A stretch of 64,000 nt of DNA from an uncultured Parcubacteria group bacterium (lineage in GTDB: Bacteria; Patescibacteriota; Patescibacteriia; UBA9934; CAMTUG01): assembly GCA_947084965.1 (NCBI GenBank), contig CAMTUG010000001.1, positions 74,166-138,165 of the forward strand, in the 5' to 3' direction. Made by a program: the position numbers and the translations under genes. Shown one piece after another: positions 1,718 through 51,797 of this stretch. The notes under the pieces were generated by a model. The model did no database searches. It was not told the DNA's origin and saw only the letters and a list, made by a program, of their open reading frames with translations. Position 1 is the first letter of the stretch. The number at the start of each line of letters is the position of its first letter.

Positions 1718-2068
1718 ATGCAAGAACAACATCTGTCCGAGGTCGATAAGAAAGATATGGAGGAGAACAAGGTCGTGGCCGCCATTGGGTACCTTTTTAT
1801 CCTCTGCCTGTTGCCGCTTCTTGGCAAAAAAGATTCCAAGTTTGCTCAGTTCCATGGCAAACAGGGATTGGTGCTGACGATCGCCGCGGTCGTGCTCTGG
1901 GTCGCTTCGTTCATCCTCGCCTTTATTCCGATCATCGGCTGGCTGGCGATGTTTGTTGGCTGGATCGCCCTTGTGGTCCTCGCGATCATGGGCATCATGA
2001 AAGCGTTGGCAGGTGAGTATTGGGAGATGCCGTTTTTGGGCCAGTACGCTAAAGAGATTAAGTTATAA
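1718..2068 (+). CDS. Small membrane protein, DUF4870-like
   Basis: 3 predicted TM segments, conserved FHGKQ motif; ATG at 1718 just after the promoter motif. Confidence 0.6.
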   Translation: MQEQHLSEVDKKDMEENKVVAAIGYLFILCLLPLLGKKDSKFAQFHGKQGLVLTIAAVVLWVASFILAFIPIIGWLAMFVGWIALVVLAIMGIMKALAGEYWEMPFLGQYAKEIKL

Positions 2069-2181
2069 ATTCGAAATACGAAATCCGAAATTCGAAACAA
2101 ATTCAAATGCCAAATTTAAAAATTCGAATTTTCTCATTCTGATTTACCGATTGTTTCGTATTTCGACATTCGAATTTCGCA
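2068..2181. repeat. Palindromic intergenic repeat, CGAAATACGAAA family, copy a
   Basis: Arms ttcgaaatacgaaa..cgaaacaa and ttgtttcgtatttcg are reverse complements; ends 4 nt before prfB ATG. Confidence 0.7.
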
Positions 2182-2184
2182 TAT

Positions 2185-3319: not shown

Positions 3320-3392
3320 GGAAAATCGAAAACGTTTGCGCATTTCCGGTTTTCCGATTAGGATTTGTTTGAGATTTCGGATTCCGTATTTC
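3283..3392. repeat. Palindromic intergenic repeat, copy b (overlaps prfB 3' end)
   Basis: cgaaaatcgaaatacgaaacaat ... atttgtttgagatttcggattccgtatttc inverted arms. Confidence 0.7.
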
Positions 3393-3398
3393 AACTTT

Positions 3399-12300: not shown

Positions 12301-15300
12301 TTGATTGTTCGGCAGATGATGGTATGTGTGATGATGCGACGGGCTCGACGAGCGCCGTCTGTAGTTCGGCTCCAACGGACTATCGCTTGGTCTACGACGC
12401 TGGAACGTGCGACGAGGAAAACGGTGAAAGTTGTGAAGTTGGTTTCTGTGCCTCAAGCGGCGCATCGTGCGGAACCGACAGTGACTGTGATTCGGGCGAC
12501 ACCTGTGAAACAGGGTATTGTGGATACGCCGCATCATCCGGAACGTGCGAGGTTGATGCAGACTGTACCGACTCAGTGTACAACACCTGTAATAACAATC
12601 TCTGCACTACCTTAACAGCCGAAGCCTGTTCCGTCTCTTCAGAATGTACTAATACGTCACTTGGTACCGCTACTTGTATTGATTCAGCTACATCGATGGA
12701 CGGGATGTGCTTTGAAAACGAGTGTTTGGTTGATGTTTCTGATCGAGATGAAGACGGGAATCTTGATGACTTTGATTACGATCTGGCCGAAGCTCTTGAT
12801 TGTCGAGGGTGGCCAGAAAGTTCCGCTCCGTTCCCAAATGAAGTAGTAACGATCTGGCAAAACGCCGACGGGGCGACCGACGCCACCCCAGATGGTGATG
12901 AAAACGCGATCACGACGCTGTCGACCTTTGAAGATGTCAATTTGTGTGCGGGCGGCGAAGAATGTCTCTGTAACTACGATGTGGTTGAGTATGGCACGGG
13001 GAAAACGTGGTATTACGATCAGGCCTCAGACGCGATCCCGACCTATAAGTGCGTTGGTGGGTTGTATGATGGTGGCGAATGTGATGCCACCGCCGGTGGA
13101 GCGATGGTTATTGATGATGTTATTCAGACAGAATTGTGTTCAGAGGGGTCAGGAGTTTGCACGCGCCTTTCTTCCCAACAAACGATGATTGGGCTTGAGG
13201 GTTACTGCTTAGAGCGTGACACGTCGCTCACCCTAAACGGTCAGACCGGGGAAGCACCGTGTCTGACCTGGCTCCCCGTCGATCGTCCAGCGGGCGCGAC
13301 GGACATTTACGGCAAAGCGACCGAAGCGGGATATCCACTCGAAGACACCTTCTACTGCGGCGACATCGATCTGTACATGGATGTTCCGACTTCGTCGATC
13401 GGTTGTGCCCAGCACGAAACTTCGTCTGGTGGTCAAGATTGTAACTATGTAAGTAGTACGGAAGATCCTTACTGGGGTGACTTGCTCCGCGGGGACGGAA
13501 ACGCCGTTTGTCCGGACGGTATGTTCGCTGTGATCGGCCGCTGTATCGATTCGGATGGTAAAACGGACGGTGATTTTGATGACCCGTATGCCTCCTCGAG
13601 TGGAAATTCAGCCGTAGATACCTGCATGGCGGACGCTGCTGATGATTCAAACGATCATCCCTACTTCTGTGTCCCTGAAGGTTCGGTACATACAGAAGGG
13701 ATCGACGAAGGAGATCTTTGCGACATTCCAGATGACGACCTGCTTAATGACTTCGGAGCTGCCTTAAATGAGGTAAAAGAAAGCGACTGGGATTACGATG
13801 ATGTCTGGGACATTAACGGAACGTGGGGTCAGATGGAGACCGTAGCTTCATCGTTATCACTCGGGAACGATGTCTATAAGATTGAGGCCCAGCCGGATGA
13901 ATTCGATACACTGTACGAGTACTATTCTGATTGTGTATTAGAAGGAGTCGACTACTTATCGACTAAGAATAATCCGTACTTAATCCCGACACCGGATAAC
14001 TTACTTAGCGGTTCGTACTACACCTGTTCAAACAGCAGCGGCCCGAGCCGCGAAGCGGCAGTTTGTGCTGATGGAAACTATGATAATCGTGACCTCGTTT
14101 CGGAAGTGGAGAATAGTTACCACGACCTGACATTTGGCACTGTCGTTTATCCAGGGTGTTCTTCGATTGTCCAGGTCGCTTCGACGACAGAAAACAGAGC
14201 CTGGACCGACCGCGTGCTCTTTGATGGTCGCGCGTATGCGATCGATCAGTTCTCGTCCGCTTCGCTCGCCTTCACGATGGATACGGTGGAAAATCCGTTC
14301 GGTGTCTCGGTATCTCCGACCTATTTGAACGAAGAGATTGATCCGAACCCAGCCCGTCCGCTTAGCTGTCTTGGTGACATTGACGGTGACGGCTATGATG
14401 ACATCTATTTGCCGAACGTGAGTGGATCATGTGGTTCTGGCTCATTGATCTCGGATGGCCTCAACCAGGGCCGCGCTTACGACGACTTTGACGGGGAAAC
14501 GGGAGGGTACATCATGGTTAGCGACAGTGAAAATCTGCGCCCAGATCAGGTTCTCTTCGGCCTGATCTCCCCGAGTACGGCTTGGGAAAACGCCATCTCC
14601 GAAATTTTTGCCTTCGCTAATACCTGGTCGAGGTTTGATCAAGGATTGGACGATGATGACGACTTTGAATCGATCGGGTCGTACAGTACTCTTGCAGAAT
14701 CATCCGGCCTGTGGGACATCACGGACTCTGGGGACAGTAATATCGAAGATGGTAATCCGACTGCGCCTGTTGTGCGTGCGGTCGGTGAAACGTGTGTCGA
14801 TCAGTACTGCCGTGAAGGGGTCGAAGATACCTTCAGCGTTAACGGCCAAGACGACAGCGACTTAACCGGTGATGGCGGCCAATTCTTCGCTGACGTGAAG
14901 TTCTTCGTCGAAGCGAACGCCAACCAGATGCCGATTCGTCGTGTGATCGTTGACTGGCAGGATCAGCGCGATACCATGTCCGGTTCGTTGACCGACGATA
15001 ATTACTACAAGAACCGCCGTGGGTTAAACGACAGCAACAACCATTGGTGCGAGCAGGAAACGAACTGGGGCGAAACCGCCGAAGCCTGTGAACCAAACTA
15101 CTTCAATACCACCAATGTCTACACCTGTTCCATGGCACTCGTGGAAACGCTCCCTGTCTGTTCCACTAATGACTCAGGTAACTTGGAAGAATCTCCATGT
15201 CGTGGTGGTGACTCCGGCTACAGCGAAGATGTCTGTATCTTCCAGCCGCGTGTCCACGTTCGCGACAACTGGGGTTGGTGCACAGGGGTGTGTGGGACGG

Positions 15301-15443
15301 ATGGGGAGAGCTGTTATGATGGGGATGGGGAAATTATGACTAATGATAGTACTGATGAGTGTAATTTAGACTACCCGAATGCAGATATGACAGCATGGGA
15401 TCCCTGGGTCTATTACGAAGGACTGATCATCGTTGAGCCATAG
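6342..15443 (+). CDS. Giant secreted Cys-rich acidic surface protein (3033 aa), function unknown
   Basis: Uninterrupted 9.1 kb ORF; signal peptide; >150 Cys, D/T/S/G-rich; no recognisable catalytic motif. Confidence 0.85.
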   Translation: MDEQKPKRNGYLLRRAGATVCLLFVLFAAVLPSAVSAQVVQVVTAPGVPIETTEDLKKELIEKPFQVAFLTIIWNFMTFISNRIAYDAAVAIATAGNGEEPLIELRDPMRYLEDLGKDVVGAGIDALNQSLEAVNIHFDLCAPKAPLVKLSLQLGIRSAYDRPEPDCDFQELTENWEAFTASTIFSASPDEAALFQFSATMNPRTTDLSSAITLLDQIYTDEALTKSSSFAEYLANNGYKNVVNSITGNVETPADLVENAWSRSVEIAIPTKEDRIAGFNFFLESKDLWKQLGVSALSTFANTLLSTFTQRIYSGMFDIDIPESDVLDVGTITFRGGVDAAESHFRSMFTAKIISLDNYSVISEFLTCPGTTTRQLNNCVMDSGFGNAVAGAEVGDPFTVQEAIDEGYIHGDWPLISQDDSRDLDQNCYSYGYCYGNLVRMRKARIIPVGWEMAASIQAAGDSDTLQDVIDQFDDCNADNERDPSHPYCHLIDPNWVLKYPSTQCRASVPGQLVDNDGIKRGTECVDAPSCIQEDAGGECVGGYGYCVREQNSFDFRGTSCPEQYATCLAVSNEDDELSGNYLFNTTDLEECDADSAGCRWYQTTKESTDDVFDWPTIDDLPTLDAAAGTYASRFYYNNDVEECDSDDAGCTRVIEKTDDVTLNLIRNPSFEDDEDADGVPDYWTFTGAGTYDLSGTTSAFASDSVAPGASGSSAIIYQTDLPLQQATFYTLSFYAEQADATSSETLTVYAVINSEDGSAEVDLSGTSYGGDCTIADLDSSGGEETILMSVTPASNTSERFSCTFTSPTFTDEDLGVRIQFLDFIGEEIYVDAVQLEADEDLSDFVVGYGTTLEQLNPTYYKLPPSYLGCTGDSDVDPAECADYAPVCTAQDVGCSEYTPENGDPVVTGIAGALDECPAVCSGYDTYKQEPTRYEPDGDFPLYFIPDTAISCGAQYVGCDEFTNLNTEERESYTYLRACQTTTQTTDEATYYTWEGSDLEGFQLVSWSLMQSDTTDAPCTTWSTTSSAIECADLSTAGTDDACDEHDDIFENPDCREFYDADGDIFYRLWSETVTVTDSCTPYRKTQIVGDDATEQASNCSGAGGYWDGTVGECNFYGYADESDECPATANGCREYTGGNSRNSSVVYEDDVEDEDIDEYIVNATTTTAEVSNESVATDGHSIHVEMSADDGYVAVASATMADCSESDGCTADTADEDADGSTADCGESDGCDAEVGTLGVSCTISEGDATCGALTGELAEGKVYILKFWAKTTTSSLVITPVFIEQAGTGDEYQFDTVTLSPIWKEYTVGPLDTTDESGFDDSALLAFMADSGAEFYLDNITLRQTEENITVIKDSWETPATCDETEDGVSSDQYHLGCQEYRDQDGETVYLKSFTRLCDEDQVGCAAFYDTQSSDSVYGAVYNITCEAVTSAGIGGACEIDGEEVCDMAAGESSCQFDWIGGVPREDDGTLKDLDSTDYQLALNADAVVVPPDEVTYFVASDTYACDEGAMGCMEVGVPTYNQDQSQVASWETSYLLNVVDAYDDILCNVDTLFCEAWDTTQNGTYYFKYPQDKTCEYRTGVVIDGSEYSGWFRTDTDQFCYGSGTCSDDATVSCSLDADCASADAGTCEINDGSYVQGGTFSGVWRNGDTAFDGWVGTCDDEYDLCSEFIDTLDVGENGLYGTDGGSSSFFLNNDELDESNLPASKQCSGQVSQKQGCILFNDTLDSELNYNASATYTLSVHANEFYSGTMTYGLVDPISCPDSGVVETLSGTSYDLCAMRCTYRNDLLHPYEDYSTTTGEDFYTFTTSCIYDSDCPLIESDGSDLVDGTCETGTFTGAGSSGSITVPTLEDDTNRIQKVNLDRDCAEWLSCSSQTTVWDESASAYKTVCDGIGMCNEYSSLGETSFCTNWNIDASPTLLTSNHYASRDIGWYGYEYAGYAVPYSLPAHLLSQKNVNPSKWCTYSTADGSVYDGRDYGYETPFIDCSADDGMCDDATGSTSAVCSSAPTDYRLVYDAGTCDEENGESCEVGFCASSGASCGTDSDCDSGDTCETGYCGYAASSGTCEVDADCTDSVYNTCNNNLCTTLTAEACSVSSECTNTSLGTATCIDSATSMDGMCFENECLVDVSDRDEDGNLDDFDYDLAEALDCRGWPESSAPFPNEVVTIWQNADGATDATPDGDENAITTLSTFEDVNLCAGGEECLCNYDVVEYGTGKTWYYDQASDAIPTYKCVGGLYDGGECDATAGGAMVIDDVIQTELCSEGSGVCTRLSSQQTMIGLEGYCLERDTSLTLNGQTGEAPCLTWLPVDRPAGATDIYGKATEAGYPLEDTFYCGDIDLYMDVPTSSIGCAQHETSSGGQDCNYVSSTEDPYWGDLLRGDGNAVCPDGMFAVIGRCIDSDGKTDGDFDDPYASSSGNSAVDTCMADAADDSNDHPYFCVPEGSVHTEGIDEGDLCDIPDDDLLNDFGAALNEVKESDWDYDDVWDINGTWGQMETVASSLSLGNDVYKIEAQPDEFDTLYEYYSDCVLEGVDYLSTKNNPYLIPTPDNLLSGSYYTCSNSSGPSREAAVCADGNYDNRDLVSEVENSYHDLTFGTVVYPGCSSIVQVASTTENRAWTDRVLFDGRAYAIDQFSSASLAFTMDTVENPFGVSVSPTYLNEEIDPNPARPLSCLGDIDGDGYDDIYLPNVSGSCGSGSLISDGLNQGRAYDDFDGETGGYIMVSDSENLRPDQVLFGLISPSTAWENAISEIFAFANTWSRFDQGLDDDDDFESIGSYSTLAESSGLWDITDSGDSNIEDGNPTAPVVRAVGETCVDQYCREGVEDTFSVNGQDDSDLTGDGGQFFADVKFFVEANANQMPIRRVIVDWQDQRDTMSGSLTDDNYYKNRRGLNDSNNHWCEQETNWGETAEACEPNYFNTTNVYTCSMALVETLPVCSTNDSGNLEESPCRGGDSGYSEDVCIFQPRVHVRDNWGWCTGVCGTDGESCYDGDGEIMTNDSTDECNLDYPNADMTAWDPWVYYEGLIIVEP

Positions 15444-15500: not shown

Positions 15501-15541
15501 CTAAAAAGCGTTGACCACCATGGAGTGTACATGGTGGTCGT
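15501..15541 (-). terminator. Rho-independent terminator of lipoprotein gene, copy 1 of duplicated hairpin
   Basis: gaccaccatgg-agtgtac-catggtggtc then GCTTTTTAG on minus strand; near-identical copy at 16589-16628. Confidence 0.65.
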
Positions 15542-15586
15542 GCGCGCGCCGGGGATGTGTCCTCGGCGGAAGAAGTTGTGGCCCGA

Positions 15587-16243
15587 TCAGAGGCGGGTGC
15601 AGGTGTAGCGGTAGTTCGCACCCCCGTCGGTGTTGACGACCCGGCCGGTCAGCGTGTCGGTGCCCTCGAGGATGAGCTTGATGTAGCCGTCCTGGTGGGT
15701 GAACTCGACGAAGTTGCCGTTGATCGTCGCCGTGTTGTTGCCGACCGCGATGCCTTCCATCTGGAGAGCACAGCCGTTGTTGATCTCGGCCGTGACCCCG
15801 TTGTACACCGTGGCGCCCGACTCGCTCGAGCAGTCCCAGGTCCCGGACAAGTCGGCGCAGAGGTTGCCGGACAGGTCGGCGATCTCGCTGACGTCGTTCG
15901 ACCCGTAGCCGAGGTAGTTCACGCCGTTCGCGCTGTAGGTGTACGCGGCGGTGTGGATCTCGGGGGAGAGGCCGTCGATGTAGTCGATCGTCTTGCGGCC
16001 GGTCTGGACGCCGTCGATCGCGTAGTCGGCGCTGATCTCCTCGGTGTCGACGAGGGTGAACTCGGTGAAGTCGTCGTTGGCCTCGTAGGTGTTGAGGCTC
16101 GCGGCGGCGAGCACGTCGTTGACGGTCTCCTCGGTGCCGTCGGTGTTGTCGGGGTTGGTGTCGAGATCGCGGCCGTCGGTGACGGTCGGATCGGTGATGT
16201 CCCCGCCGCACGCGGCGAGGAACACGAGGGCGATGAAGCGCAT
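15587..16243 (-). CDS. Lipoprotein, acidic D/T/G-rich, GC-rich gene (paralog of 16676-17284)
   Basis: Start MRFIALVFLAACGG (lipobox LAAC) with AGGAGG RBS; about 68 % GC. Confidence 0.7.
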   Translation of the reverse strand: MRFIALVFLAACGGDITDPTVTDGRDLDTNPDNTDGTEETVNDVLAAASLNTYEANDDFTEFTLVDTEEISADYAIDGVQTGRKTIDYIDGLSPEIHTAAYTYSANGVNYLGYGSNDVSEIADLSGNLCADLSGTWDCSSESGATVYNGVTAEINNGCALQMEGIAVGNNTATINGNFVEFTHQDGYIKLILEGTDTLTGRVVNTDGGANYRYTCTRL

Positions 16244-16588
16244 GGCTTCCTCCTGTGTTGCCTTTCGGCGGGTGGGTGAGTTTCCGTTGGCCGGTAAAAG
16301 AGATACTCGGCTGGCCAGGGATCCTCGGGGGATCAAGGAACTGTCTTTCAGGGATCAGCTCTCTCGAAATTGCTCCGGAAATCTCACTTTCTTAGAGTTT
16401 CCGCTAGGATTGACGATAATCCGAGCAGTTTCGAGAGGGCGATCAACCTGATGACTCAAAATCAACGTACCATGAAATAGGGGAATAGTCAATGCGTCAA
16501 GGTGTGGGCGGTGGATAAGTGCATATTTTAGCCAATTTCTGCTAAAAGTTTTGCGACACATAATCAGGTGGTTTCTGCAAGGTTCGCA

Positions 16589-16628
16589 TAAAAAGCGTTG
16601 ACCACCATGGAGTGTGCATGGTGGTCGT
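16589..16628 (-). terminator. Rho-independent terminator, copy 2 of duplicated hairpin
   Basis: ttgaccaccatggagtgtgcatggtggtc plus T-run on minus strand. Confidence 0.65.
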
Positions 16629-16675
16629 GCGCGCGCCTCGGGGAAGTATCCGTGGCGGAAGAAGTTGTGGCCCGA

Positions 16676-17284
16676 TCAGCGGCGGCAGGTCACGGTCCCG
16701 TATTGGGCACCGGTGTTCCCGTAGACGTTGAGGGTGATCACTGAGCCGTCCAGGGACACGATGCCGTCGTAGTCCTCGGAGGAGAAGTGGTGGCCGTCCA
16801 GCATGATCTCGGTGTCCATCCCTGACTCGACATGACAGTCATCAGAGACCTCGATGTAGTTCTCCCAGCTTGGGTACTCGGTTCCGTCGTACGTGTTCTG
16901 ACATACCCACTCATCCGTCAGGTCCAGACAGAGCTCGGTGGACAGTTCGGCGGTCTCGCCGACGTCGATCGGTGCCTGACCGAAGTACGTCGCGCCCTCG
17001 TCGCTGGTGAAGGCGAAGGTCACGGTGTAGTCCTGGGGGTCGAGGCCGTCGATGGTGTCTGGGGTGGTGCCGGTGATGTCGGTGCCAGCGATCGCGTAGG
17101 TGACGCCTTCCACTTCCTGGAGGTCTTCGATGACCTCGGTCATGTCATCGTTCCAGTCGGCGAAGTTGATCGTGGCGGTGATGGTCACCGTCATGTTGTT
17201 GATCGCGGGCGGGGTGCTCGTGTCCTTGCTCGTCGAGGTGGTGTCGGTGCAGGCGGCGAGGAGGATGAGGGTGATGAGGTGCAT
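16676..17284 (-). CDS. Lipoprotein, acidic, GC-rich (paralog of 15587-16243)
   Basis: Start MHLITLILLAACTD (lipobox LAAC); shared C...W.C...C...TC.R framework with paralog. Confidence 0.7.
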   Translation of the reverse strand: MHLITLILLAACTDTTSTSKDTSTPPAINNMTVTITATINFADWNDDMTEVIEDLQEVEGVTYAIAGTDITGTTPDTIDGLDPQDYTVTFAFTSDEGATYFGQAPIDVGETAELSTELCLDLTDEWVCQNTYDGTEYPSWENYIEVSDDCHVESGMDTEIMLDGHHFSSEDYDGIVSLDGSVITLNVYGNTGAQYGTVTCRR

Positions 17285-17990: not shown

Positions 17991-18216
17991 CGAATCATGA
18001 GATTTGAAATGTTCTGACAGTATCTGGTTCCAGCGTGATCACTCAGGCGGTTAATTACGGGGGGACTTGAGCGGCGCGCGGCCCCGGGGCTTCAACACAC
18101 ATTTCTGTCCGGTTTCACCGATCTCCCGACGCTGGGAAAGTACTAGCCCGGCGCGGGAGGGGCGATGAACGGTTCATCGGTACTCTCGTCAACACGAGAC
18201 AATAAAGGAGGGCGCC

Positions 18217-20286
18217 ATGCGCCTCACCAGGCTTCTTTACACCCACATCATCGTCTTCATCCTCGGGATGATCACGATGCTCACGAGCCTCACCGGCTGC
18301 TCGGATCCGTTCGAACAGTGGCAGGAAGAGATGCGTCTGGCCGAGATCGGCGGCCACGAAGGCGACATCATCGATCTGCCGTTCGAGGCGGGCTACGAGG
18401 CGCTCTGCACCCAGGGGGCGCATGGGGAGTACAGCCACGCGAGCGAGTCGACCGAGTACGACATCGACCTCGACACCCCGAACGACAGCGTCGACCTCGT
18501 CTACGCCCCGGTCGGCGGGGTGGCCTACGTCCACATGGACTCGGCGTCCAAGAACTTCGGCTACCACGTCAACATCGACCGCGACGACGGGACCTACGTC
18601 ATCCTCGGACACCTCTCGGACATCTACGTCGAGGACGGGGTCGAGGTGGCGGCCGGGCAGATCGTCGGGACGGAAGGGTGCACGGGCTACTGCTCGGGCG
18701 ACCACGTCCACTTCGGTCTGCACTCCGGCGATGCGGCGAGCCCCGGTGAGCGGGCGACCTCGATCAAGGTCAGCTACCTGGTCGACGACGTGACCGCCGG
18801 GGAGGAGGGCGAGGTCTACACCAGCGAGGAGATGATCTGCGACCTCGAAGGCGGCGGGCACCGCTACCGCTCGCTCCTCACGACCCCGACCTGGCACCCC
18901 AACGGGTCCTTGGTCAAGACCCCGTGGGACGAGGAGGTCTTCCTGATCGAGAACGGCACCAAGCGGTGGATCACCGATCAGGACGTCTTCTGGTCGCTCG
19001 GCTACTCCTTCGAGGACGTGGCGCTCATCTCCGGCACGGAGCTGAACTGCTACGACCAGGGGGATGACGTGGCCACGGCGGACGAGGTGCCGACCGCGTA
19101 CACGAGCGCGGACGGGACGGTGACGCTCCACGAGGGCGAGCTGGTCAAGGAGAGCTCGGAGAGCGACGTCTACGTCATCTCGGAAGGGGTGGCGATGCCG
19201 ATCGAATCCTGGGACGTGCTCCTGAAGCTCGGCTGGGGTGAGCGGCCGATCACCACGATCGACGACGGGACGATCGAGGAGATCGTCGGCGCGGTCGGGA
19301 GCTGTGCGGCCGACATCTGGTGCCTCGACCACGACCTCCTCGAGGCGTGCGAAACGACCAACCCGGCCAACGTCGGCGGGAGCGAGGACACCGCGAGCGA
19401 GGAGGAGAACGAGACCGAGGCTGTGGATCCGTCGTCGATGCTCGAGGGGGAGATCGAGGACGGGGAGTTCGGGCTCGTGTTCCTGCCGCCCGATGGCTAC
19501 GAAGCGGAGCACATCACCCTCACCGGGACCGCGATCGACGCTGAGGGGAACACCCTCTACGCCGAGCGCGAGCTGGCGAGCGAGAACGGGGACACGGCGC
19601 TCTGGTGGACGACCATGGCGTTCGAGGACGGTGGAGTCTTCGACTTCTACGTCACCTACACCGACGGGATGGGCGACCGCTACTCCTGCGAGATCGAGAA
19701 CGACGGGAGCTACCGCATGAACGGCACGCTCTACATGGTCTACGGCGCCGAGGTGATCGACATCGAGACCGTGCTCGAGAGTGCCAACGGCGGGCGGCAC
19801 TGCTACGTGCGGCCGCGGATTCCGCCGGGGTACACGATCGAGATCGATACCGGCGACTCGAACAGCAGCGGGGACACCGGAGAGCCGACGGTCGACACCG
19901 GAACCGCCACCGACGCGGAGGTCGAGATCTGCTACGCCCCCGGGGTGACGATGTCTGGCGGGGAGCTCTACCTCGACGGAGGATTCTTCACCCACTGGGA
20001 TACGAGTCCGGCTGACACCGCCGCTTCCGGCGACACGACGATGTGCGAAACGGTCACCGCTGTCTCAGGAGAGACGATCAAGGTGAACGGTTGGTTCATC
20101 GAGCGCGGCGGATCCGGGACGGTCGAGTGGGCGGCGTACAACAACGTGTGCGCGTCGATCGACTGGCAGGGGAGTGTGACCGTGGACTCGGCGAGCGTCA
20201 GCGTGACGACCGCGCCGTGGAGCGCCGCGTCCTGGGCCAGCGACCCCTGCATGACCGGCGGGGACGGCTACTTCACCGTCCCGTAG
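18217..20286 (+). CDS. Lipoprotein with M23 (LytM-type) metallopeptidase domain, 689 aa, GC-rich
   Basis: Lipobox LTGC; HxxxD (HVNIDRDD) and HxH (GDHVHFGLH) motifs; AGGAGG RBS; about 68 % GC. Confidence 0.75.
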   Translation: MRLTRLLYTHIIVFILGMITMLTSLTGCSDPFEQWQEEMRLAEIGGHEGDIIDLPFEAGYEALCTQGAHGEYSHASESTEYDIDLDTPNDSVDLVYAPVGGVAYVHMDSASKNFGYHVNIDRDDGTYVILGHLSDIYVEDGVEVAAGQIVGTEGCTGYCSGDHVHFGLHSGDAASPGERATSIKVSYLVDDVTAGEEGEVYTSEEMICDLEGGGHRYRSLLTTPTWHPNGSLVKTPWDEEVFLIENGTKRWITDQDVFWSLGYSFEDVALISGTELNCYDQGDDVATADEVPTAYTSADGTVTLHEGELVKESSESDVYVISEGVAMPIESWDVLLKLGWGERPITTIDDGTIEEIVGAVGSCAADIWCLDHDLLEACETTNPANVGGSEDTASEEENETEAVDPSSMLEGEIEDGEFGLVFLPPDGYEAEHITLTGTAIDAEGNTLYAERELASENGDTALWWTTMAFEDGGVFDFYVTYTDGMGDRYSCEIENDGSYRMNGTLYMVYGAEVIDIETVLESANGGRHCYVRPRIPPGYTIEIDTGDSNSSGDTGEPTVDTGTATDAEVEICYAPGVTMSGGELYLDGGFFTHWDTSPADTAASGDTTMCETVTAVSGETIKVNGWFIERGGSGTVEWAAYNNVCASIDWQGSVTVDSASVSVTTAPWSAASWASDPCMTGGDGYFTVP

Positions 20287-20372
20287 CAACAACATCAATC
20301 GACAGGGGGCGGATGGCTACTCCATCCGCCCACCTTCGCTTACGAAACTGAACTAGTTTGAGCGTCAAAACC

Positions 20373-20395
20373 TGAGGTCACAATTTGTGACCTCA
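20373..20395. repeat. Perfect 23-nt palindrome tgaggtcacaatttgtgacctca (operator-like)
   Basis: Self-complementary; 29 nt upstream of ORF6N gene. Confidence 0.7.
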
Positions 20396-20423
20396 AGTTA
20401 CGCAGTCAGAATGATTCTAAAAT

Positions 20424-20927
20424 ATGGAAACGAATATTCCCATCGAACGTATCTATCAAAATATTTATCTCATTCGGGGAAAAAAGGTTATGTTAGATTC
20501 TGATCTGGCTATCCTTTATGGTGTAGAGACAAGATCCCTAAACCAAGCCGTGCGTCGCAATATCGAACGTTTTCCGGAAGACTTTATGTTTGAACTAAGC
20601 TCAGTTGAGCTAAAATCTTTGAGATCACAAATTGTGATCTCAAACGGTCGAGGTGGAGCCAGATATGGCCACATGGTTTTTTCTGAATACGGAATCGCCA
20701 TGTTATCGAGTGTTTTGCGAAGTGAAAAGGCGGTGCAGGTCAATATTCAGATCATTCGGGCATTTATTGCTCTGCGTGACTTTGTGCTTAGTAATGATGA
20801 TTTGCAGATGAAAATCGAAGCACTTGAATTGCGTTATGACGGCGAGTTGCGTTCAGTTTTCGATGCTCTGAATCGTCTTCTGACTGAAGAGGAGAAGCCG
20901 GAACCAGAAATCGGCTTCAAAACTTGA
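20424..20927 (+). CDS. ORF6N/KilA-N domain protein (phage antirepressor-like DNA-binding)
   Basis: KVMLDSDLAILYGVETRSLNQAVRRNIERFPEDFMFEL signature. Confidence 0.7.
   Translation: METNIPIERIYQNIYLIRGKKVMLDSDLAILYGVETRSLNQAVRRNIERFPEDFMFELSSVELKSLRSQIVISNGRGGARYGHMVFSEYGIAMLSSVLRSEKAVQVNIQIIRAFIALRDFVLSNDDLQMKIEALELRYDGELRSVFDALNRLLTEEEKPEPEIGFKT
20619..20643. repeat. Perfect 25-nt palindrome ttgagatcacaaattgtgatctcaa inside ORF6N gene
   Basis: Identical to copy at 20925-20949. Confidence 0.7.
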
Positions 20928-20949
20928 GATCACAAATTGTGATCTCAAA
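20925..20949. repeat. Perfect 25-nt palindrome overlapping ORF6N stop codon
   Basis: ttgagatcacaaattgtgatctcaa. Confidence 0.7.
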
Positions 20950-25586: not shown

Positions 25587-26018
25587 ATGCCTGATCAATT
25601 TGTCGTCCCTCAATTTATCGATGTCGAGGATAAAATTTTAGGACCGCTTTCGGTGCGGCAGTTTGTGATTTTGCTCCTGGTGCTGCTAACGGACGCCTTG
25701 CTCTATAAGCTCCTCACCTTTGGAAAGTTTATGATGGTGGGGATTCCGGTGATCATCATCGGTGGGGTGTTCGCTTTTGTGAAGATTAACGGCCAGCCGT
25801 TTCATTATGCTCTTCTGAATATCGTACAGACGCTTCGTAAACCGGGGATTCGGGTGTGGGATAAGCACCTGACCGACGGCGAGGTGCGTAGTTTTATTAC
25901 AGAAGAAGCAGCCCCGCCACCGCCACCACCGGTCCGTAAGGCTGCGCTTACTTCGAGCCGTTTGTCTGAGCTGTCCCTCGTCGTCAACACAGGTGGGGTT
26001 TACAATCCAGAGGAATAG
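25587..26018 (+). CDS. Small 2-TM membrane protein, possibly VirB3/PrgI-like
   Basis: Two hydrophobic helices, poly-Pro stretch; position in T4SS-like locus. Confidence 0.35.
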   Translation: MPDQFVVPQFIDVEDKILGPLSVRQFVILLLVLLTDALLYKLLTFGKFMMVGIPVIIIGGVFAFVKINGQPFHYALLNIVQTLRKPGIRVWDKHLTDGEVRSFITEEAAPPPPPPVRKAALTSSRLSELSLVVNTGGVYNPEE

Positions 26019-26021
26019 TAT

Positions 26022-26137
26022 GAAATTCGAAATACGAAGTACGAAACAATCGGAAAATCAGAAAGGGAAAGTTTCAAAATTTCCTCTTTCCGATTCGAAT
26101 TTGTTTCGGATTTCGATATTCGAATTTCGTATTTATA
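26022..26137. repeat. Palindromic intergenic repeat, copy d
   Basis: gaaattcgaaatacgaagtacgaaacaat ... attcgaatttgtttcggatttcgatattcgaatttcgtattt. Confidence 0.75.
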
Positions 26138-26146: not shown

Positions 26147-26851
26147 ATGGCCAAAGATAAGAACACCTTAGCAAAACCGAAGCCGGGTCCAGCGACCCAG
26201 CGGTATTTGGATATCGCCGAAATCCGCGATGACATGGTGCTGTTGAAGGACGGCACGGTTCGCGGGGTGTTGATCGTCTCTTCGCTTAACTTTGCGTTGA
26301 AGTCGCACGATGAACAGCAGGCGATTATTCAGGCATACATGTCCTTCTTGAACGGGATCGAATATCCAATTCAGATCGTGGTGCAGTCGCGCAAAATGAA
26401 CATTGATAAGTATATTGAGGAGATGCGCGAACAGTGGCGCAATCAAACAAATGAGTTGCTGAAAACGCAGATCCAGGAATATATCGGTTTCATCACCCAG
26501 CTCGTCACCCTTGGGGAGATCATGACCAAGCGTTTCTTCGTCGTCGTTCCCTATGACCCGGTGACCAACAGCAAGAAAAAGTTTTTGTCGCGGGTGGGGG
26601 AAGCATTTTCCCCAGCGAAACTTTTCAAACTCAAGCGGAAGCAGCTTGAAGAGCGCAAGCGCGAATTAGATCAGCGCCTATCTCTCATTCAAAGTGGGCT
26701 CGGTTCGATGAGTTTGCAGTCCGTGCGGCTCGATACCCAGGGGCTGATTGAACTCTATTATTCGGTGTACAATCCTGAGCAGGCCGAAGTACAAAAATTG
26801 GAAGACGTCAATAAATTGCGGGTCGAAGATTCGGGTGCAGTAAGTCTCTAG
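26147..26851 (+). CDS. Hypothetical protein, VirB4 N-terminal-domain-like
   Basis: KDGTVRGVLIVSSLNF...IEYPIQIVVQS resembles VirB4/TraC N-domain logic. Confidence 0.35.
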   Translation: MAKDKNTLAKPKPGPATQRYLDIAEIRDDMVLLKDGTVRGVLIVSSLNFALKSHDEQQAIIQAYMSFLNGIEYPIQIVVQSRKMNIDKYIEEMREQWRNQTNELLKTQIQEYIGFITQLVTLGEIMTKRFFVVVPYDPVTNSKKKFLSRVGEAFSPAKLFKLKRKQLEERKRELDQRLSLIQSGLGSMSLQSVRLDTQGLIELYYSVYNPEQAEVQKLEDVNKLRVEDSGAVSL

Positions 26852-26855
26852 TATG

Positions 26856-26950
26856 AAATTCGAAATACAAAATACGAAGTACGAAACAATCGGAACATCT
26901 GAAGGAGAAAATCAGAAAATTTCGAATTTCGATATTCGGATTTCGTATTT
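26856..26950. repeat. Palindromic intergenic repeat, copy e
   Basis: Near-identical to copy d at both ends. Confidence 0.75.
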
Positions 26951-26958
26951 ATCATAGT

Positions 26959-32902: not shown

Positions 32903-32979
32903 GCGCCCGTAGCTCAGTTGGATAGAGCGTCAGGTTGCGGACCTGAAGGTCGCATGTTCGAGTCATGCCGGGCGCACCA
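32903..32979 (+). tRNA. tRNA-Arg, anticodon reads GCG (unusual), CCA encoded
   Basis: Acceptor gcgcccg/cgggcgc, D-loop with A20, T-loop TTCGAGT, anticodon loop ttGCGga. Confidence 0.75.
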
Positions 32980-32985
32980 CAAAAT

Positions 32986-33016
32986 AAAAAACACCCACCG
33001 GGTGATTTTTTATTTT
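32986..33016 (+). terminator. Rho-independent terminator after tRNA-Arg
   Basis: caccc-acc-gggtg hairpin then ATTTTTTATTTT. Confidence 0.6.
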
Positions 33017-33162
33017 GCGGCATGACTCGAAATGGGGAAAGGGGTTCGGGGAAAACGGGAGTTTTCCCCGCGAGGCCGCGGCGGAGGAAGGGGTGACAGC
33101 GAGCATATGCGAGCGCCAGAGGGGAAACGACGTTTCCCCATGGAGAGGAGCGGAGCGACGAT

Positions 33163-33222
33163 GTTCGCGTCATGCCGGGCGCACCACAAAATAAAAAACA
33201 CCCACCGGGTGATTTTTTATTT
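33163..33222 (+). repeat. 60-nt direct duplicate of tRNA-Arg 3' end plus terminator (attR-like)
   Basis: 59/60 identity to 32956-33015. Confidence 0.7.
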
Positions 33223-43351: not shown

Positions 43352-43357
43352 AAGGTT

Positions 43358-43470
43358 AGAAATCCGAAATTCGAATATCGAAATACGAAATAAGCGGAAA
43401 CCGGAAAGTTCGAATTTCAAATTTTTCTCTTTCCGATTCGAATTTGTTTCGTATTTCGAATTTCGTATTT
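43358..43470. repeat. Palindromic intergenic repeat, copy f (between htpX stop and clpC start)
   Basis: gaaatacgaaat...ttgtttcgtatttcgaatttcgtattt. Confidence 0.75.
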
Positions 43471-43477
43471 TTTATCT

Positions 43478-44392
43478 TCATACCCCCATGCTACGCAGGC
43501 GTTTAATGCGTTCTTCAACAGGCGGATGTGTGGAGAACCAGGAGGCGAGTTTGTTTCCCGGCCCGAACGGGTTTGAGATGTAGAGGTGGGCGGTGGCGTG
43601 GTTGGCCTTTTTCATCGGAGCGCCGTACGCCCGGATCTTTTCGAGAGCGCTGGCTAATCCTTCAGGGTAGCGGGTCAGAAGCGCACCGGATGCGTCTGCC
43701 AAATATTCGCGTTGGCGTGATACGGCGAGTTTAATCAGTTCGGCAAAAAACGGAGAGAGGATCGAGAGGACGAGGCCGATCACAAAGAGGGCGATCGTTG
43801 CTTGATTGTGTTCGCGATTGCGACCAAACATGAACGAGCGTAGCATCCAGTCTGCAAGCAAGGTCACGATACCGACGAGGACGATGACGATCGTCATCAC
43901 GAGGATGTCGTAGTTTTTGATGTGCGACATCTCGTGAGCCAGCACCCCTTCAAGTTCTTTTTTCTCCATGATACGCAGAAGCCCGGTCGTCACGGCTACG
44001 CTCGCATGTTCAGGGTTGCGGCCGGTAGCGAAGGCGTTTGGGGCATCGTCTTGAACGATGTAGACCTTGGGCATTGGGGTGCCGTTGGTGATCGCCAGAT
44101 TCTCGATAATTCTCCAGAGTTCCGGGGCCTGATCCTTTTCAATCTGTTTTGCTCCGGAAGTGGCGAGGGCTAATTTGTCGCCGCCGAAGTAACTGATGAG
44201 CGACATCGTCGTCGCAAGGATCGTCGCAAGAACGATTCCGCTCGTGGCATCGCCATTTGCTTCCCCGAAGACCCAACCGATCGTCAGAATCAGGACGGAG
44301 AAGAGGGTGACCAGCAAAACGGTTTTGCGTTTGTTGGAAGCAATCTGGTTATACACAGAAATACGAAATACGAATATCGAAATTCGAAACAA
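43478..44392 (-). CDS. htpX: Zinc metalloprotease HtpX (M48); annotated N-terminus (MFRISIFVFRISV) is repeat-encoded and start is uncertain
   Basis: HEMSHIKNYD HExxH motif, 4 TM. Confidence 0.8.
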   Translation of the reverse strand: MFRISIFVFRISVYNQIASNKRKTVLLVTLFSVLILTIGWVFGEANGDATSGIVLATILATTMSLISYFGGDKLALATSGAKQIEKDQAPELWRIIENLAITNGTPMPKVYIVQDDAPNAFATGRNPEHASVAVTTGLLRIMEKKELEGVLAHEMSHIKNYDILVMTIVIVLVGIVTLLADWMLRSFMFGRNREHNQATIALFVIGLVLSILSPFFAELIKLAVSRQREYLADASGALLTRYPEGLASALEKIRAYGAPMKKANHATAHLYISNPFGPGNKLASWFSTHPPVEERIKRLRSMGV

Positions 44393-44478
44393 TTGGAAAC
44401 GTGAAAGGGAAACGTGTTTGCGAATTTTCTCTTTTCATTTCGAATGTGTTTCGTATTTCGTTTTTCGAATTTAGAATT
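44357..44478. repeat. Palindromic intergenic repeat, copy g (between lemA stop and htpX start)
   Basis: gaaatacgaaatacgaatatcgaaattcgaaacaat ... gtgtttcgtatttcgtttttcgaattt. Confidence 0.75.
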
Positions 44479-45025
44479 TAACCGCTGGAGCCTGGTGGAC
44501 TTCATCTGGGGCGTCAAAGAAATCGCGTTTGGTGAATTTGAGCATTCCAGCGATCAGGTTGGCAGGGAAGGTCTGTTGGGTCGTGTTGAAGTCGCGGACG
44601 TTGGCGTTGTAGAATCGGCGCGCGGCTTGGATTTTATCTTCGGCGTCTGAAAGCTCGGTCTGCAAGTGCAAGAAGTTTTGTGACGCTTGGAGGGCCGGAT
44701 AATTTTCGGCGACCGCGAAGAGGGACTTCAAGGTGTTGGTCAGCATGTTTTCTGCTTCGGCGTGCTGAGCAGCAGTTGTTGCGCCCATGGCGGCGGAACG
44801 CGCTTTGGTCACGTTCTCAAAGACCGACGATTCGTGTTTGGCATACCCTTTGACCGATTCGACCAAGTTCGGGATCAGATCGTAGCGGCGTTTCATCTGC
44901 ACTTCGATGTCCGACCAGGCTTCATCTGTACGATTGCGAAGCGTGATAAGCTTGTTAAACAACATCACGATCCAGAGGATCAACACCACGATCACGGCCC
45001 CGAGGATCAGCGGCAAATACATCAT
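44471..45025 (-). CDS. lemA: LemA family protein
   Basis: N-terminal TM plus conserved LemA region (NRTDEAWSDIEVQMKRRYDLIPNLV). Confidence 0.8.
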   Translation of the reverse strand: MMYLPLILGAVIVVLILWIVMLFNKLITLRNRTDEAWSDIEVQMKRRYDLIPNLVESVKGYAKHESSVFENVTKARSAAMGATTAAQHAEAENMLTNTLKSLFAVAENYPALQASQNFLHLQTELSDAEDKIQAARRFYNANVRDFNTTQQTFPANLIAGMLKFTKRDFFDAPDEVHQAPAVKF

Positions 45026-49400: not shown

Positions 49401-51797
49401 ATGGCCAATATTCTCGCTTCTTACGACTGGATCAAAGAGCATCTTAAAACAGACGCCTCCGTGGCTGAGTTTGCCAAAAAGATGACTGACGCGGGGAACA
49501 GTGTCGAACACATTCATGATGTTGCTGAAGCCTACAACGGGATCGTTGTTGGTCGTATTTTGGTCGTTGATGCCCATCCGAATGCGGACAAGCTTCGCGT
49601 GGTCACGGTAGACGTTGGTAAGAAGGTGCAGATCGTTTGTGGTGGGTTAAATCTCGAAGTTGATCAGTTGGTCTGCGTTGCTCTGCCTGGAGCAAAAGTG
49701 CGTTGGCATGGGGAAGGTGAGTTGATTGAGTTGAAAGAGGCCGAGCTCCGTGGTGTGCAATCGTTTGGGATGATCTGTGCGCCTGACGAAGTTGGATTTG
49801 AAAAGTTGCAGGCCGGGGAAAAGATGATTTGGGATCTGACCAACGTTACGGATGCGAAACCCGGGACGCCACTTGTCAAAGCGCTCGGGCTCGAAGATAC
49901 TTTGTTTGATATTGAAGTGACGACCAATCGACCGGACGCCATGTCGATTGTTGGGCAAGCAAGAGAGGCAAGTGCTTGTGGGTTAGGAAAATTCGAAATG
50001 CGAAAATCGAAATTCGAAACAAGTGGAAAGTCAGAAGGAAAAAATGGGAAAATGGATCTCAAGGTGTCGGTCAAAGATAAAGATTTGTGCCCACGCTACC
50101 AAGCGGTGGTGATCGAAGGGGTCAAGGTTGCGCCATCACCGTGGTGGATGCAGAAGCGTTTATTGCTCTCTGGTCATCGTCCGATTAACAACGTGGTCGA
50201 TGTGACTAATTACGTTTTGCACGAGCTCGGTCAGCCGCTGCATGCTTTTGACGCCGACACGCTTGAAGGGCAAGAGATCATCGTGCGCAAAGCCAAAAAG
50301 GGAGAGAAGATCCTGGCGCTCGATGGGAAAGAATACGAACTCGATGCCTCGATGCTGGTGATTGCTGATGCAAAGAAACCGGTTGCCGTTGCTGGGGTGA
50401 TGGGGGGAGAGCTTACAGGAACAAAAGAAGGAACAACACGCCTCGTGATTGAATCTGCGGTGTTCGATGCTGTATCTGTCCGTCGCACGGCTCGCACCCT
50501 CAACTTGTATTCTGACTCTTCCAGCTTGTTTGAAAAGGGGCTTTCGCCGGAAGCGACAACCGGAGCGATTGAACGAGCGATTGAACTTATCTGTGAATTG
50601 ACCGGTGGTCACGTTGCCTCGGTCATCTACGATGCGCGTGCGGAAAAGTACAAACCGGAAGTGTATCCGTATGACGCCAAGCGCATCAGTGATGTGATCG
50701 GCCTTGATGTCCCAGAGAAAAAGCAAAAGGAGATTTTGGAAGCACTCGGGTTTGTTATCGATGGAAAAAAAGCGACCGTTCCGTATTGGCGCGATCATGA
50801 CATCGAAGATGCGATCGACTTGGCTGAAGAGGTCGCCCGGGTGGTGGGTTATGCCAATGTGCCGTCGGTCATTCCAACAGGGGAGATTCCGGTTACGTTG
50901 CCCGATCCAAAGATTGTCTGGGAGCGGAAGCTGAAAAATATTCTGAAAGGCGCTGGCGTCAGCGAGGTGTACAGCAACGCCTTTGTTTCCGAAGCGATAC
51001 TCGGCAAGTACAAGATTCCGCTCGATGCGGCCAGTAAATTGGAAAATCCGCTGACCGATGAATGGGTGTACATGCGCCCGACGCTTGTACCGAGTATGCT
51101 CACAGTAATTGAAGAAAATCAGCGACGCTTTGAAGCGGCCGCATTATTCGAGCTCAACCACGTGCACCATCCGCGCAAAGGGGATATTCCTTCCGAAGAT
51201 TGGCGCCTGTTAATTGCCGGTTACGGTCCAGACGGCGGGGCGCAAGCGTTCCGTTATGTCAAAGGAATCCTCGAGCGCGTGTTGCGAGAAGCGGGCGTGG
51301 CTGCGGTTAGCTTTGAATCGGGCGGAGCAGACGATCACTTCCACCCAGGCCGCAGCGCCAAAGTCATCGCTGGAAAAGATATGGTCGGGACGATCGGCGA
51401 ACTCGCGCCGCACTACGCGCAGGCGTTCGGTATCGACCGTCGCGTTGTTCTGGCTGACCTGAATCTCGATCATCTCTTGCCACACTTAGGTGCTGGCAAG
51501 CGCTATCAGCCAACCCCAGAGTTCCAAGACCTGATCCGCGACTTGTCATTCGTCCTCCCGGAACGCAAAACGCACGCCGAAGTGCAGGCGGCGCTGGTTG
51601 GAGTTGATCCATTGATCAGTAGTGTTTCCCTCGTCGACGTCTATCAAGGGAAAGGGATCGAGGCGGGACAGAAGTCAATGACGTATCGCTTATCTCTGCG
51701 TGCCTCTGATCGCACATTGTCTTCCGACGAAGCTGATGCGGTCATGAACTCTGTTGGAAAGATGCTCACTTCCGATTTTGGTGCTATACTACGGTAG
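49401..51797 (+). CDS. pheT: Phenylalanine--tRNA ligase beta subunit (contains in-frame repeat insertion 49988-50030)
   Basis: tRNA-binding, B3/B4, B5, FDX-ACB domains; start MANILASYDW. Confidence 0.9.
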   Translation: MANILASYDWIKEHLKTDASVAEFAKKMTDAGNSVEHIHDVAEAYNGIVVGRILVVDAHPNADKLRVVTVDVGKKVQIVCGGLNLEVDQLVCVALPGAKVRWHGEGELIELKEAELRGVQSFGMICAPDEVGFEKLQAGEKMIWDLTNVTDAKPGTPLVKALGLEDTLFDIEVTTNRPDAMSIVGQAREASACGLGKFEMRKSKFETSGKSEGKNGKMDLKVSVKDKDLCPRYQAVVIEGVKVAPSPWWMQKRLLLSGHRPINNVVDVTNYVLHELGQPLHAFDADTLEGQEIIVRKAKKGEKILALDGKEYELDASMLVIADAKKPVAVAGVMGGELTGTKEGTTRLVIESAVFDAVSVRRTARTLNLYSDSSSLFEKGLSPEATTGAIERAIELICELTGGHVASVIYDARAEKYKPEVYPYDAKRISDVIGLDVPEKKQKEILEALGFVIDGKKATVPYWRDHDIEDAIDLAEEVARVVGYANVPSVIPTGEIPVTLPDPKIVWERKLKNILKGAGVSEVYSNAFVSEAILGKYKIPLDAASKLENPLTDEWVYMRPTLVPSMLTVIEENQRRFEAAALFELNHVHHPRKGDIPSEDWRLLIAGYGPDGGAQAFRYVKGILERVLREAGVAAVSFESGGADDHFHPGRSAKVIAGKDMVGTIGELAPHYAQAFGIDRRVVLADLNLDHLLPHLGAGKRYQPTPEFQDLIRDLSFVLPERKTHAEVQAALVGVDPLISSVSLVDVYQGKGIEAGQKSMTYRLSLRASDRTLSSDEADAVMNSVGKMLTSDFGAILR
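49988..50030. repeat. Half copy of CGAAAT repeat inserted in-frame in pheT (encodes KFEMRKSKFETSGK)
   Basis: ttcgaaatgcgaaaatcgaaattcgaaacaagtggaaag. Confidence 0.6.
51782..51790 (+). promoter_or_regulatory. Extended -10 promoter TGCTATACT inside pheT 3' end, 8 nt before next ATG
   Basis: Motif match. Confidence 0.45.

Follow-up and report, generated by a model that had tools for sequence, protein, structure and literature searches.

In-frame, one-armed copies of a palindromic repeat with heptad-built arms in pheT and rsmA of a Patescibacteria genome

Introduction

How does half of a palindromic DNA repeat come to lie in the reading frame of pheT, the gene for the beta chain of phenylalanyl-tRNA synthetase (PheRS), and what does it change in the protein? 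The question is raised by a 64,000-nt stretch of contig CAMTUG010000001.1 (assembly GCA_947084965.1), here called the window, to which all coordinates refer. Complete copies of the repeat lie between genes; each of their inverted arms consists of four CGAAATN heptads and ends in an anchor, CGAAACAA, beyond which lies a variable, A-rich, degenerate centre. The copy in pheT, and another in the rRNA dimethyladenosine transferase gene rsmA, are single arms. An original prediction, made from the sequence alone, had described these copies as in-frame insertions, expected to be lineage-specific, of a repeat resembling the Rickettsia palindromic elements (RPEs). Family membership of the two copies, their reading frame, their presence at the same sites in relatives, their location in loops and the small change in protein length are direct observations; from them we argue, with reservations, for an origin by insertion of a mobile element.

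The closest relatives of the window PheT are annotated as Candidatus Uhrbacteria or Patescibacteria, and the host is a member of the Patescibacteria with an Uhrbacteria-like genome. The protein is identical to database entry P0001, which is encoded in the NCBI assembly and in an independent Logan assembly. Since PheT occurs together with the segment in an independent assembly, the segment is not an assembly artefact.

Results

A repeat arm in the reading frame of pheT

PheT contains the Pfam domains tRNA_bind, B3_4, B5, a catalytic-like domain and FDX-ACB, and its best PDB match is a PheRS beta chain (E=1e-118). The repeat was searched for with a hidden Markov model (HMM) of the 36-nt arm, built from 61 complete elements, 58 of which come from other organisms. 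In the linker between the B2 (tRNA_bind) and B3/4 domains of PheT, nucleotides 49988-50022 (+) match positions 2-36 of the 36 in the model at E=1.4e-9, the third-best arm in the window. The copy comprises a complete left arm, with four CGAA heptads (units AAATT, AAATG, AAAAT and AAATT, in order) and the anchor CGAAACAAG, followed by the A/G-rich inner part; the right arm is missing. Over 44 nt it is 86% identical to 3280-3323, at the left end of a complete element, and the inner motif GGAAAnTCAGAAnG is common to the pheT copy and the intergenic copies of the window. It is translated in frame as PheT residues about 197-218 (KFEMRKSKFETSGKSEGKNGKM), beginning GKFEMRKSKFETSGK; the segment DNA GGAAAATTCGAAATGCGAAAATCGAAATTCGAAACAAGTGGAAAG reads GKFEMRKSKFETSGKSEGKNGKM. 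The segment has no significant fold (z=-1.2).

The effect on the protein is smaller than the clean 23-residue insertion that had been proposed. Against PheT of S. haemolyticus (2rhs) the whole region aligned with a single 2-residue gap, the window linker being 2 residues longer, and the window protein has 76 residues from TNRPD to PSPWW, versus 68-72 in most of 28 Patescibacteria PheT sequences (range 68-86). Judged from these alignments, the net gain is about 6-7 residues rather than 23. The start of the ancestral linker was already G-x-K/E-F-x-W/F-K, and relatives have GKFxW or KFEW there. In the AlphaFold2 model of PheT, with a mean predicted local distance difference test score (pLDDT) of 86, residues 199-220 are predicted to be coil, with pLDDT <50 at 206-214, and are flanked by a confident helix (183-192) and strand (221-224). 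The model thus places the copy in a loop, as had been expected. Orthologues of equal length and normal conservation at these sites had been named as the observation that would speak against insertion; repeat-free orthologues do have comparable length, but the loop is variable and unconserved.

The same arm in rsmA and in genes of other organisms

The second coding copy is an arm at 5150-5179 (-), detected at E=4.9e-6, so that both of the partial in-frame copies originally described in pheT and rsmA are recovered by the arm model. The coding strand of rsmA reads the right arm, with ATTTCG heptads, in frame as ...SRISNFAFRNY in a variable loop preceding the NLPYN motif. The copy is 88% complementary to the pheT arm. 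Each of the two retains one entire arm, intact at its outer end, and a short inner stretch; the opposite arm is absent, and neither copy has a significant fold. The RsmA loop aligns without gaps to that of B. subtilis KsgA (6ifs), and the span compared is 57 residues versus 49-54 in most relatives (range 49-71), that is, 3-7 longer. Both copies lie in variable and probably disordered loops of nearly normal length.

In rsmA of GCA_964588955.1 (locus L161, which also carries prfB), heptads of the form (TTTCGGA)n stand at the same site and read FRISDLFGSSDFGFP. In another syntenic relative, L162, the rsmA site (about 10230-10290) has an 8-nt periodic tract, AATTACCC AATTATCA AATTACCA AATTAT, in place of CGAAAT heptads, which may be a decayed or a different repeat.

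Among the loci retrieved, one-armed in-frame copies occur in two further well-supported proteins, in the same orientation and phase as the pheT copy. The C-terminal chain of a split transketolase of Saccharibacteria (L017) contains FKSEIRNPKSETNS. In the region separating the Pyr domain from the C-terminal one, 32 of its residues stand opposite 3 of the C. hydrogenoformans enzyme (6yaj), so that the insertion is clean and amounts to about 29 residues net. The other protein, an SPP1-type portal protein in a viral contig (L142), contains KFEIRNSKYETNS. In-frame insertion is therefore a real mechanism for this repeat family, though its net effect in PheT and RsmA is small.

Might the heptads instead have arisen in place? 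Replication slippage could have expanded a heptanucleotide seeded by GGn-AAA-TTC-GAA (G-K-F-E; ancestral AAATTCGAA), the likeness to the intergenic repeat then being convergent. The net gain of 6-7 residues in PheT agrees with the length of three heptads (21 nt, 7 codons); GKFxW or KFEW stands at the start of the linker in relatives; the rsmA site of L162 has its own, different periodic tract; and slippage has been proposed as the cause of the over-representation of heptameric repeats between bacterial genes (PMC4692102). Yet the pheT copy matches the whole 36-nt arm, including the non-repetitive anchor and the inner motif, the rsmA copy, which is oppositely oriented, is a complete arm too, and arms of different phyla keep to four units, unlike microsatellites. 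The units of the array also differ from each other and are therefore not recent products of slippage. We disfavour this explanation and consider it very improbable.

Conservation of the pheT arm in related genomes

DNA of the relatives was sampled at only 5-22 kb each, and statements on the absence of arms from them are limited to that. Two orthologues with 63-64% PheT identity, P0003 (GCA_964588955.1) and P0004 (a Hainich groundwater assembly), carry a one-armed copy at the same site, reading GGAAAATGCGAAATGCGAAATCCGAAATTCGAAACAAATCCG and GGAAAATTCGAAATTCGAAATTTGAAATTCGAAACAAAAATG. The junctions, GG/AAAAT... and ...AAAAT(G/T)GAT, and the frame are identical in the window and in the pheT loci of the two carriers (L001 and L003), and an otherwise rare unit, AAATGCG, is common to the window and L001. 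Together with the heptads in rsmA of L161, these shared copies contradict the view that the insertions are peculiar to this genome; on sequence comparison, the PheT and RsmA events are older than the split of at least two or three genus-level lineages.

The arm is conserved as DNA. Third-position identity between the three pheT genes is 0.39-0.46 gene-wide, near saturation, versus 0.57-0.76 in the repeat segment. Codons for conserved residues are identical in all three genomes at 6 of 6 positions in E199-G209, compared with 96 of 413 (23%) elsewhere in pheT (P=1.6e-4), and K197, AAA in all three, brings the count to 7 of 7 by eye. Where the three copies differ, they do so at the variable N position of the heptad. 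Of all arms in the sampled DNA of the two carrier relatives, that of pheT is the best preserved. No arms were detected in the sampled DNA of three other relatives, L004, L006 and L163 (GCA_023246435.1), and their pheT copy is decayed or absent: the linkers of L004 and L006 have diverged, that of L006 still reading FEERS...GFRFGSKS, and L163 has no trace of the copy. The pheT copy behaves as a member of the repeat family and not as a normal piece of coding sequence. Its frozen synonymous sites would be explained by gene conversion from other copies or by selection acting on the heptads.

Other repeats occupy the same linker. In L004 two GC-rich hairpin units, GCGCAGGCTTCAGCCTGCG ... GCGCAGACTAAAGTCTGCG, lie at this site (about 10590-10680), and the linker of L006 contains an 8-nt inverted repeat, TTTGGTAG...CTACCAAA; in this clade, repeats seem to land, or to be tolerated, repeatedly in the linker between B2 and B3/4. 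L163 PheT, which has no heptad copy, has two similar extra peptides, ISPPFRGGDGGGDNV and ISPPPRGGAGGGGHI, plus GDPSTGSGPSRM, in different loops (residues about 70-85 and about 470-485). They resemble in-frame copies of another repeat, one rich in GC.

Such observations bear on a second alternative, that the pheT and rsmA copies are recent and independent, the products of hotspot insertion or of repeated conversion by intergenic copies. The near-consensus sequence of the arm amid otherwise saturated synonymous divergence would fit this, as would the non-monophyly of the carriers in the neighbour-joining tree, the resemblance of the inner part of the window pheT copy to the window's own subfamily, and the different inserts, such as the hairpins of L004, at the same site in relatives. 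But the three genomes agree in the outer and inner junctions, in the frame and in the one-armed truncation, and the window and L001 have the rare AAATGCG unit in common; the linker of L006 looks like a decayed descendant of the same insert, and the sampled DNA of the relatives contains few intact donor copies. Recurrent insertion or conversion is accordingly disfavoured, and we regard it as distinctly unlikely, although conversion keeps some probability.

Complete elements in the window and their effect on gene ends

Within the window, TCGAAATTCGAAA occurs 17 times with at most one mismatch, versus 0.49 expected, and the arm HMM has 13 matches at E<1e-4, 11 of them in six intergenic copies and 2 in coding sequence. 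The six full copies in these 64 kb are palindromes of about 100-125 nt with inverted arms, and all lie in intergenic spacers (Table 1). Long, imperfect hairpins are predicted for 5 of the 6, with z from -2.7 to -6.7.

Table 1. Repeat copies and the genes that they enter or adjoin in the window
Feature	Position	Strand	Evidence and context
pheT, PheRS beta chain, 798 aa	49401-51797	+	Pfam, PDB alignments
One-armed copy in pheT	49986-50052	+	Arm HMM match 49988-50022
rsmA/ksgA, 16S rRNA dimethyladenosine transferase, 257 aa	4881-5654	+	Pfam RrnaAD 1.1e-52, PDB alignments
One-armed copy in rsmA	5146-5180	-	Arm HMM match 5150-5179
prfB (RF2)	2185-3319	+	Pfam PCRF, RF-1; start ATG 2185 at right edge of element 2064-2186
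Full element	2064-2186	+	Spacer between DUF4870 gene and prfB; hairpin z=-2.9; element at same site in L161
Full, decaying element	3280-3400	+	Spacer between prfB and epimerase gene; left arm 3281-3316; RNA fold z=-0.09
Full element	26013-26137	+	Spacer between PrgI-like gene and ORF (open reading frame) 26147-26851; -45.6 kcal/mol, z=-6.7
Full, shorter element	26853-26952	+	Spacer between ORF 26147-26851 and VirB4-TraG-like ATPase gene
Full element	43357-43479	-	Fills spacer from htpX stop to clpC start; site empty in L001, 3-nt spacer
Full element	44356-44481	-	Fills spacer from lemA stop to htpX start; site empty in L001 and L004

The six elements form three pairs, each bracketing one gene: prfB, a 234-aa ORF in a cluster resembling a type IV secretion system, and htpX. 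Six randomly chosen gaps would pair around single genes with P about 8e-4, and prfB is bracketed by elements in GCA_964588955.1 also; local hopping or a gene-specific role could explain the arrangement. At orthologous sites, elements occupy the flanks of prfB in the window and in L161, whereas L162 has none there; the flanks of htpX are occupied in the window but vacant in L001 and L004. GCA_964588955.1 thus has elements beside prfB and none beside htpX. The family thus combines long persistence with presence/absence differences between relatives.

The copy downstream of prfB has altered its protein. The C-terminal tail of RF2, AENSKIENRNTKQ, is a 9-residue extension that, together with its stop codon, is read from the left arm of element 3280-3400, as had been suggested. 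RF2 of the window ends in ...YLRWKLAENSKIENRNTKQ, versus ...YLRWKLGEKA and ...YLRWSVKKL in two syntenic relatives; the orthologous element of L161 lacks exactly the 35-nt left arm, and its RF2 is 9 residues shorter. At the other end of the gene, the classical programmed +1 frameshift of prfB is found as CTT TGA T (2248-2253), preceded by GGGG, with CTT TGA C in L161 and L162. ORF0 is MSDLLNQIQSLQSRVAETWGLL, and an ORF called mechanically from 2189 has its first 22 codons in the wrong frame.

The repeat-derived N-termini once assigned to HtpX and ClpC exist only in maximal ORFs. Orthologues of HtpX start MYNAIA... or MYDQIA..., and those of ClpC start MQEIINKFTT...; the window genes therefore start at GTG 44356 (HtpX) and ATG 43351 (ClpC), abutting but outside the elements.

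The repeat family across phyla

The family is not lineage-specific either. We scanned one genome per GTDB species with GAANNNCGAAATNCGAAACAA, which has 18 specified bases and for which about 17 chance matches are expected, and found at least 119 matching stretches. The matches listed include metagenome-assembled genomes of Planctomycetota, Desulfobacterota, Verrucomicrobiota, Omnitrophota and several Patescibacteria classes, with Acidobacteriota, Nitrospirota, WOR-3, Binatia and Kuenenia as further hosts; among them are contigs of 0.5-2.6 Mb, and the GC content of the loci runs from 34 to 71%. A further 34 stretches lie in viral contigs of IMG/VR. Going by these matches, the family is not confined to one lineage, and the same architecture recurs in many phyla.

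Most of the 61 elements have four CGAA heptads per arm, discrete unit variants (AAATY, AAGCA and AATAT) are common across phyla, and the non-repetitive anchor of the family is CGAAACAAAT. Towards the inner part of the elements CGAAAT shifts to CAAAAT or CCAAAT. Inspection of the unit sequences shows no stop codon in the arms, whichever of the six frames is read, and translation can therefore pass through a copy inserted in a gene. There is a tendency for one arm to carry a G-type and the other a T-type unit (22 elements versus 9). There is no covariation between the two arms, whose variable positions are complementary at a level of 0.43 within elements and 0.51 between unrelated ones; it is therefore the heptads that are conserved rather than the hairpin. 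The copies are situated after genes, co-directionally in 18 cases, convergently in 8 and divergently in 1. A fixed orientation relative to transcription, suggested by five window copies, fails across phyla.

Searches for a described counterpart gave nothing specific. Rfam, applied with gathering and E-value thresholds to the window and seven loci of other phyla, returned only tRNAs and chance microRNA-like hairpins. [quoted passage not shown] BLAST of the consensus element against PLSDB plasmids gave no match, to which the low-complexity filter may contribute. The motifs of CtsR, IHF and CcrM and restriction sites were rejected as candidates, as the sequences do not match. A peptide search of 5.8 billion proteins with arm translations found only hypothetical ORFs of 41-78 aa over intergenic copies, the peptide-level search being too insensitive for matches of 12-15 aa within real proteins. 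Records of hypothetical proteins that derive from copies (P0241-P0258) are present in JGI, ENA and NCBI, one of them from the Olavius algarvensis Delta 1 symbiont. Long open frames across copies in high-GC genomes were treated as spurious, mostly having no Pfam support on both sides.

Breadth and nucleotide conservation of this kind raise a third alternative: the four-heptad CGAAATN arm may be a functional cis-acting signal, a binding array for a widespread DNA- or RNA-binding factor. Purifying selection on nucleotides would then preserve the copy in pheT and the pairs around prfB and htpX. On this account one would expect what is seen in pheT, where synonymous sites of the arm are frozen in three genomes with changes only at the variable N, and where the arm is the best preserved in the sampled DNA of two relatives. 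The fixed number of heptads and the discrete units across phyla from 34 to 71% GC fit it too, as does the missing covariation, which points to heptads rather than hairpins as the conserved entity. So do the three pairs bracketing single genes (prfB in a relative as well), and for Beggiatoaceae it has been proposed that regulators bind heptamers beside start codons (PMC4679880). However, the analysis yielded no candidate factor, close relatives have empty orthologous sites with no visible compensation, decay of the element that follows prfB is clear in both genomes, orientation to genes is not fixed, and gene conversion could freeze synonymous sites equally well. We judge a cis-acting signal unlikely, though deserving of some weight.

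Other features of the window

Several further repeats and unusual genes were seen. Two 62-nt direct repeats (32954-33015 and 33161-33222) are 98% identical and lie 207 nt apart. Both include AAAAAACACCCACCGGGTGATTTTTT, a terminator-like hairpin, and a tRNA (32903-32976) overlaps the first with its 3' end; the pair could be a duplicated tRNA end or an attachment-like site. Around a gene with an ORF6N domain (20424-20927), a perfect 26-nt palindrome, TTGAGATCACAAATTGTGATCTCAAA, is found three to four times within 20372-20949 and looks like an operator. The region 15502-16685 consists of two units about 1.09 kb apart whose end stretches (49 and 55 nt) are 87-98% identical; each has a 236-aa ORF on the minus strand with no Pfam match, and the two may be a tandem pair of paralogues. 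A giant ORF of 3033 aa (6342-15443) is syntenic with 3035-aa ORFs in L161 and L162, and a 2-kb stretch at 18000-20000 with 65% GC encodes an M23-peptidase protein with low-complexity sequence.

Discussion

Taken together, these results lead us to favour, as the somewhat more probable account, a palindromic element of MITE-like or Foldback-like type that leaves RPE-like, one-armed remnants in frame. A copy would have entered the B2-B3/4 linker of pheT in an ancestor of the window genome and at least two other lineages, and another the variable loop of rsmA. Insertion may have been of the whole element, with one arm lost later; the opposite arm was presumably deleted because a full hairpin within a coding region is costly. 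PheT would have gained about 7 residues on balance and RsmA 3-7, both in loops tolerant of any sequence. At prfB, the left arm of an intergenic copy would have overrun the old stop codon and created the 9-residue tail. We infer mobility from the filled and empty orthologous sites, and a transposase would be its agent.

Several observations weigh against this account. Clustering of 2029 ORFs from about 150 loci, limited to 8-kb neighbourhoods, revealed no recurrent transposase, the recurrent ORF families near copies being ordinary metabolic genes, and no transposase was found among the window ORFs scanned. Nor did the 61 elements reveal a target-site duplication, a fixed terminus or a fixed flanking dinucleotide; positions -6 and -7 outside the arms are variable (T 40%, A 30%, C 25%), and of the comparisons between filled and empty sites one fits a TA flank and another does not. 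Half an element is about 62 nt, or about 20 residues, and the gain is 7, so a loss of ancestral linker has to be assumed. The ancestral start of the linker, G-K-F-E/x-W-K (GGn AAA TTY GAA), resembles the end of the arm, which leaves the left junction ambiguous. The neighbour-joining tree does not group the three carriers alone, and losses or decay in three lineages must therefore be assumed. A selfish MITE in decay is not usually conserved in sequence from phylum to phylum, nor at synonymous sites. Finally, the pheT arm is near consensus at synonymous sites in genomes whose sampled DNA contains the family and decayed where no arm was found, a pattern that simple decay does not explain, although the link between decay and absence of the family rests on 5-22 kb per relative. 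An inserted element would thus need a family-wide force, either gene conversion or a factor that recognises the heptads, to maintain its pheT arm.

If insertion is the right explanation, a process of the RPE type, best known from Rickettsia, would now be found in core translation genes of reduced Candidate Phyla Radiation genomes. If instead the arm is a cis-acting signal, the coding region of a tRNA synthetase would carry an overlapping non-coding code. Under either, repeat copies inflate ORF predictions, as in the false N-termini of HtpX and ClpC and in many spurious hypothetical proteins of 40-80 aa in public databases.

RPEs are small palindromic repeats found in frame in housekeeping genes, where they encode peptide segments compatible with the fold, and occasional in-frame fusions are also known for ERIC and BOX (PMC10969869). 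The present family resembles RPEs in its size of about 100-150 nt and in occurring both between genes and in frame in unrelated housekeeping genes, here in a predicted disordered loop. RPEs, however, are confined to Rickettsia and inserted whole, whereas the copies described here contribute one arm and few residues, are made of heptad arrays and occur in many phyla; the distinction is drawn from descriptions of RPEs. The analogy first proposed therefore stands for the mechanism, which the 29-residue insertion in transketolase illustrates, but not for the form, as pheT, rsmA, the L017 transketolase gene and the L142 portal gene each contain one arm only.

With MITEs such as Correia/NEMIS, ERIC, BOX and RUP the family shares terminal inverted repeats, a length of about 100-150 nt, the lack of an ORF, a high copy number, a location after genes and between convergent genes, and presence/absence differences between relatives. 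The MITE families described so far do not extend beyond a genus or family, and they come with a cognate insertion sequence and target-site duplications; here neither a transposase nor a duplication was found, and the inverted repeats consist of four tandem heptads conserved in sequence across phyla. REPs (repetitive extragenic palindromic sequences) and REPINs are more distant, being GC-rich palindromes of 20-40 nt with a GTAG end, as opposed to AT-rich heptad arrays with no GTAG, and no Y1 transposase (RAYT, the REP-associated type) was found among the scanned window ORFs.

Heptamer repeats provide a different comparison. TAACTGA heptamers of Beggiatoaceae, Cyanobacteria and Bacteroidetes are intergenic, often located by start codons and occasionally in ORFs (PMC4679880), and heptamer repeats are patchily distributed across distant lineages by a transfer mechanism that is not known (PMC4679880, PMC4692102). 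The 7-nt units, intergenic location and patchy spread of TAACTGA, of GGGAATC in Xanthomonas and of the cyanobacterial STRR sequences recall the present family, but those repeats are direct arrays of 2-43 units, compared with a fixed four per arm, inverted and with a non-repetitive anchor, here.

Foldback transposons are eukaryotic elements with long inverted arms of short tandem units that degenerate towards the centre. Inverted arms of tandem units and inner degeneration, as in the shift from CGAAAT to CAAAAT or CCAAAT, are found in our elements as well; Foldback transposons are much larger and have variable numbers of units, and no homology is implied. What is new in the family described here, which is absent from Rfam and the searchable literature, is its reach across phyla and its one-armed intragenic copies conserved at the nucleotide level. 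It combines features of in-frame palindromic repeats with those of patchily distributed heptamer repeats, both of which were already known separately.

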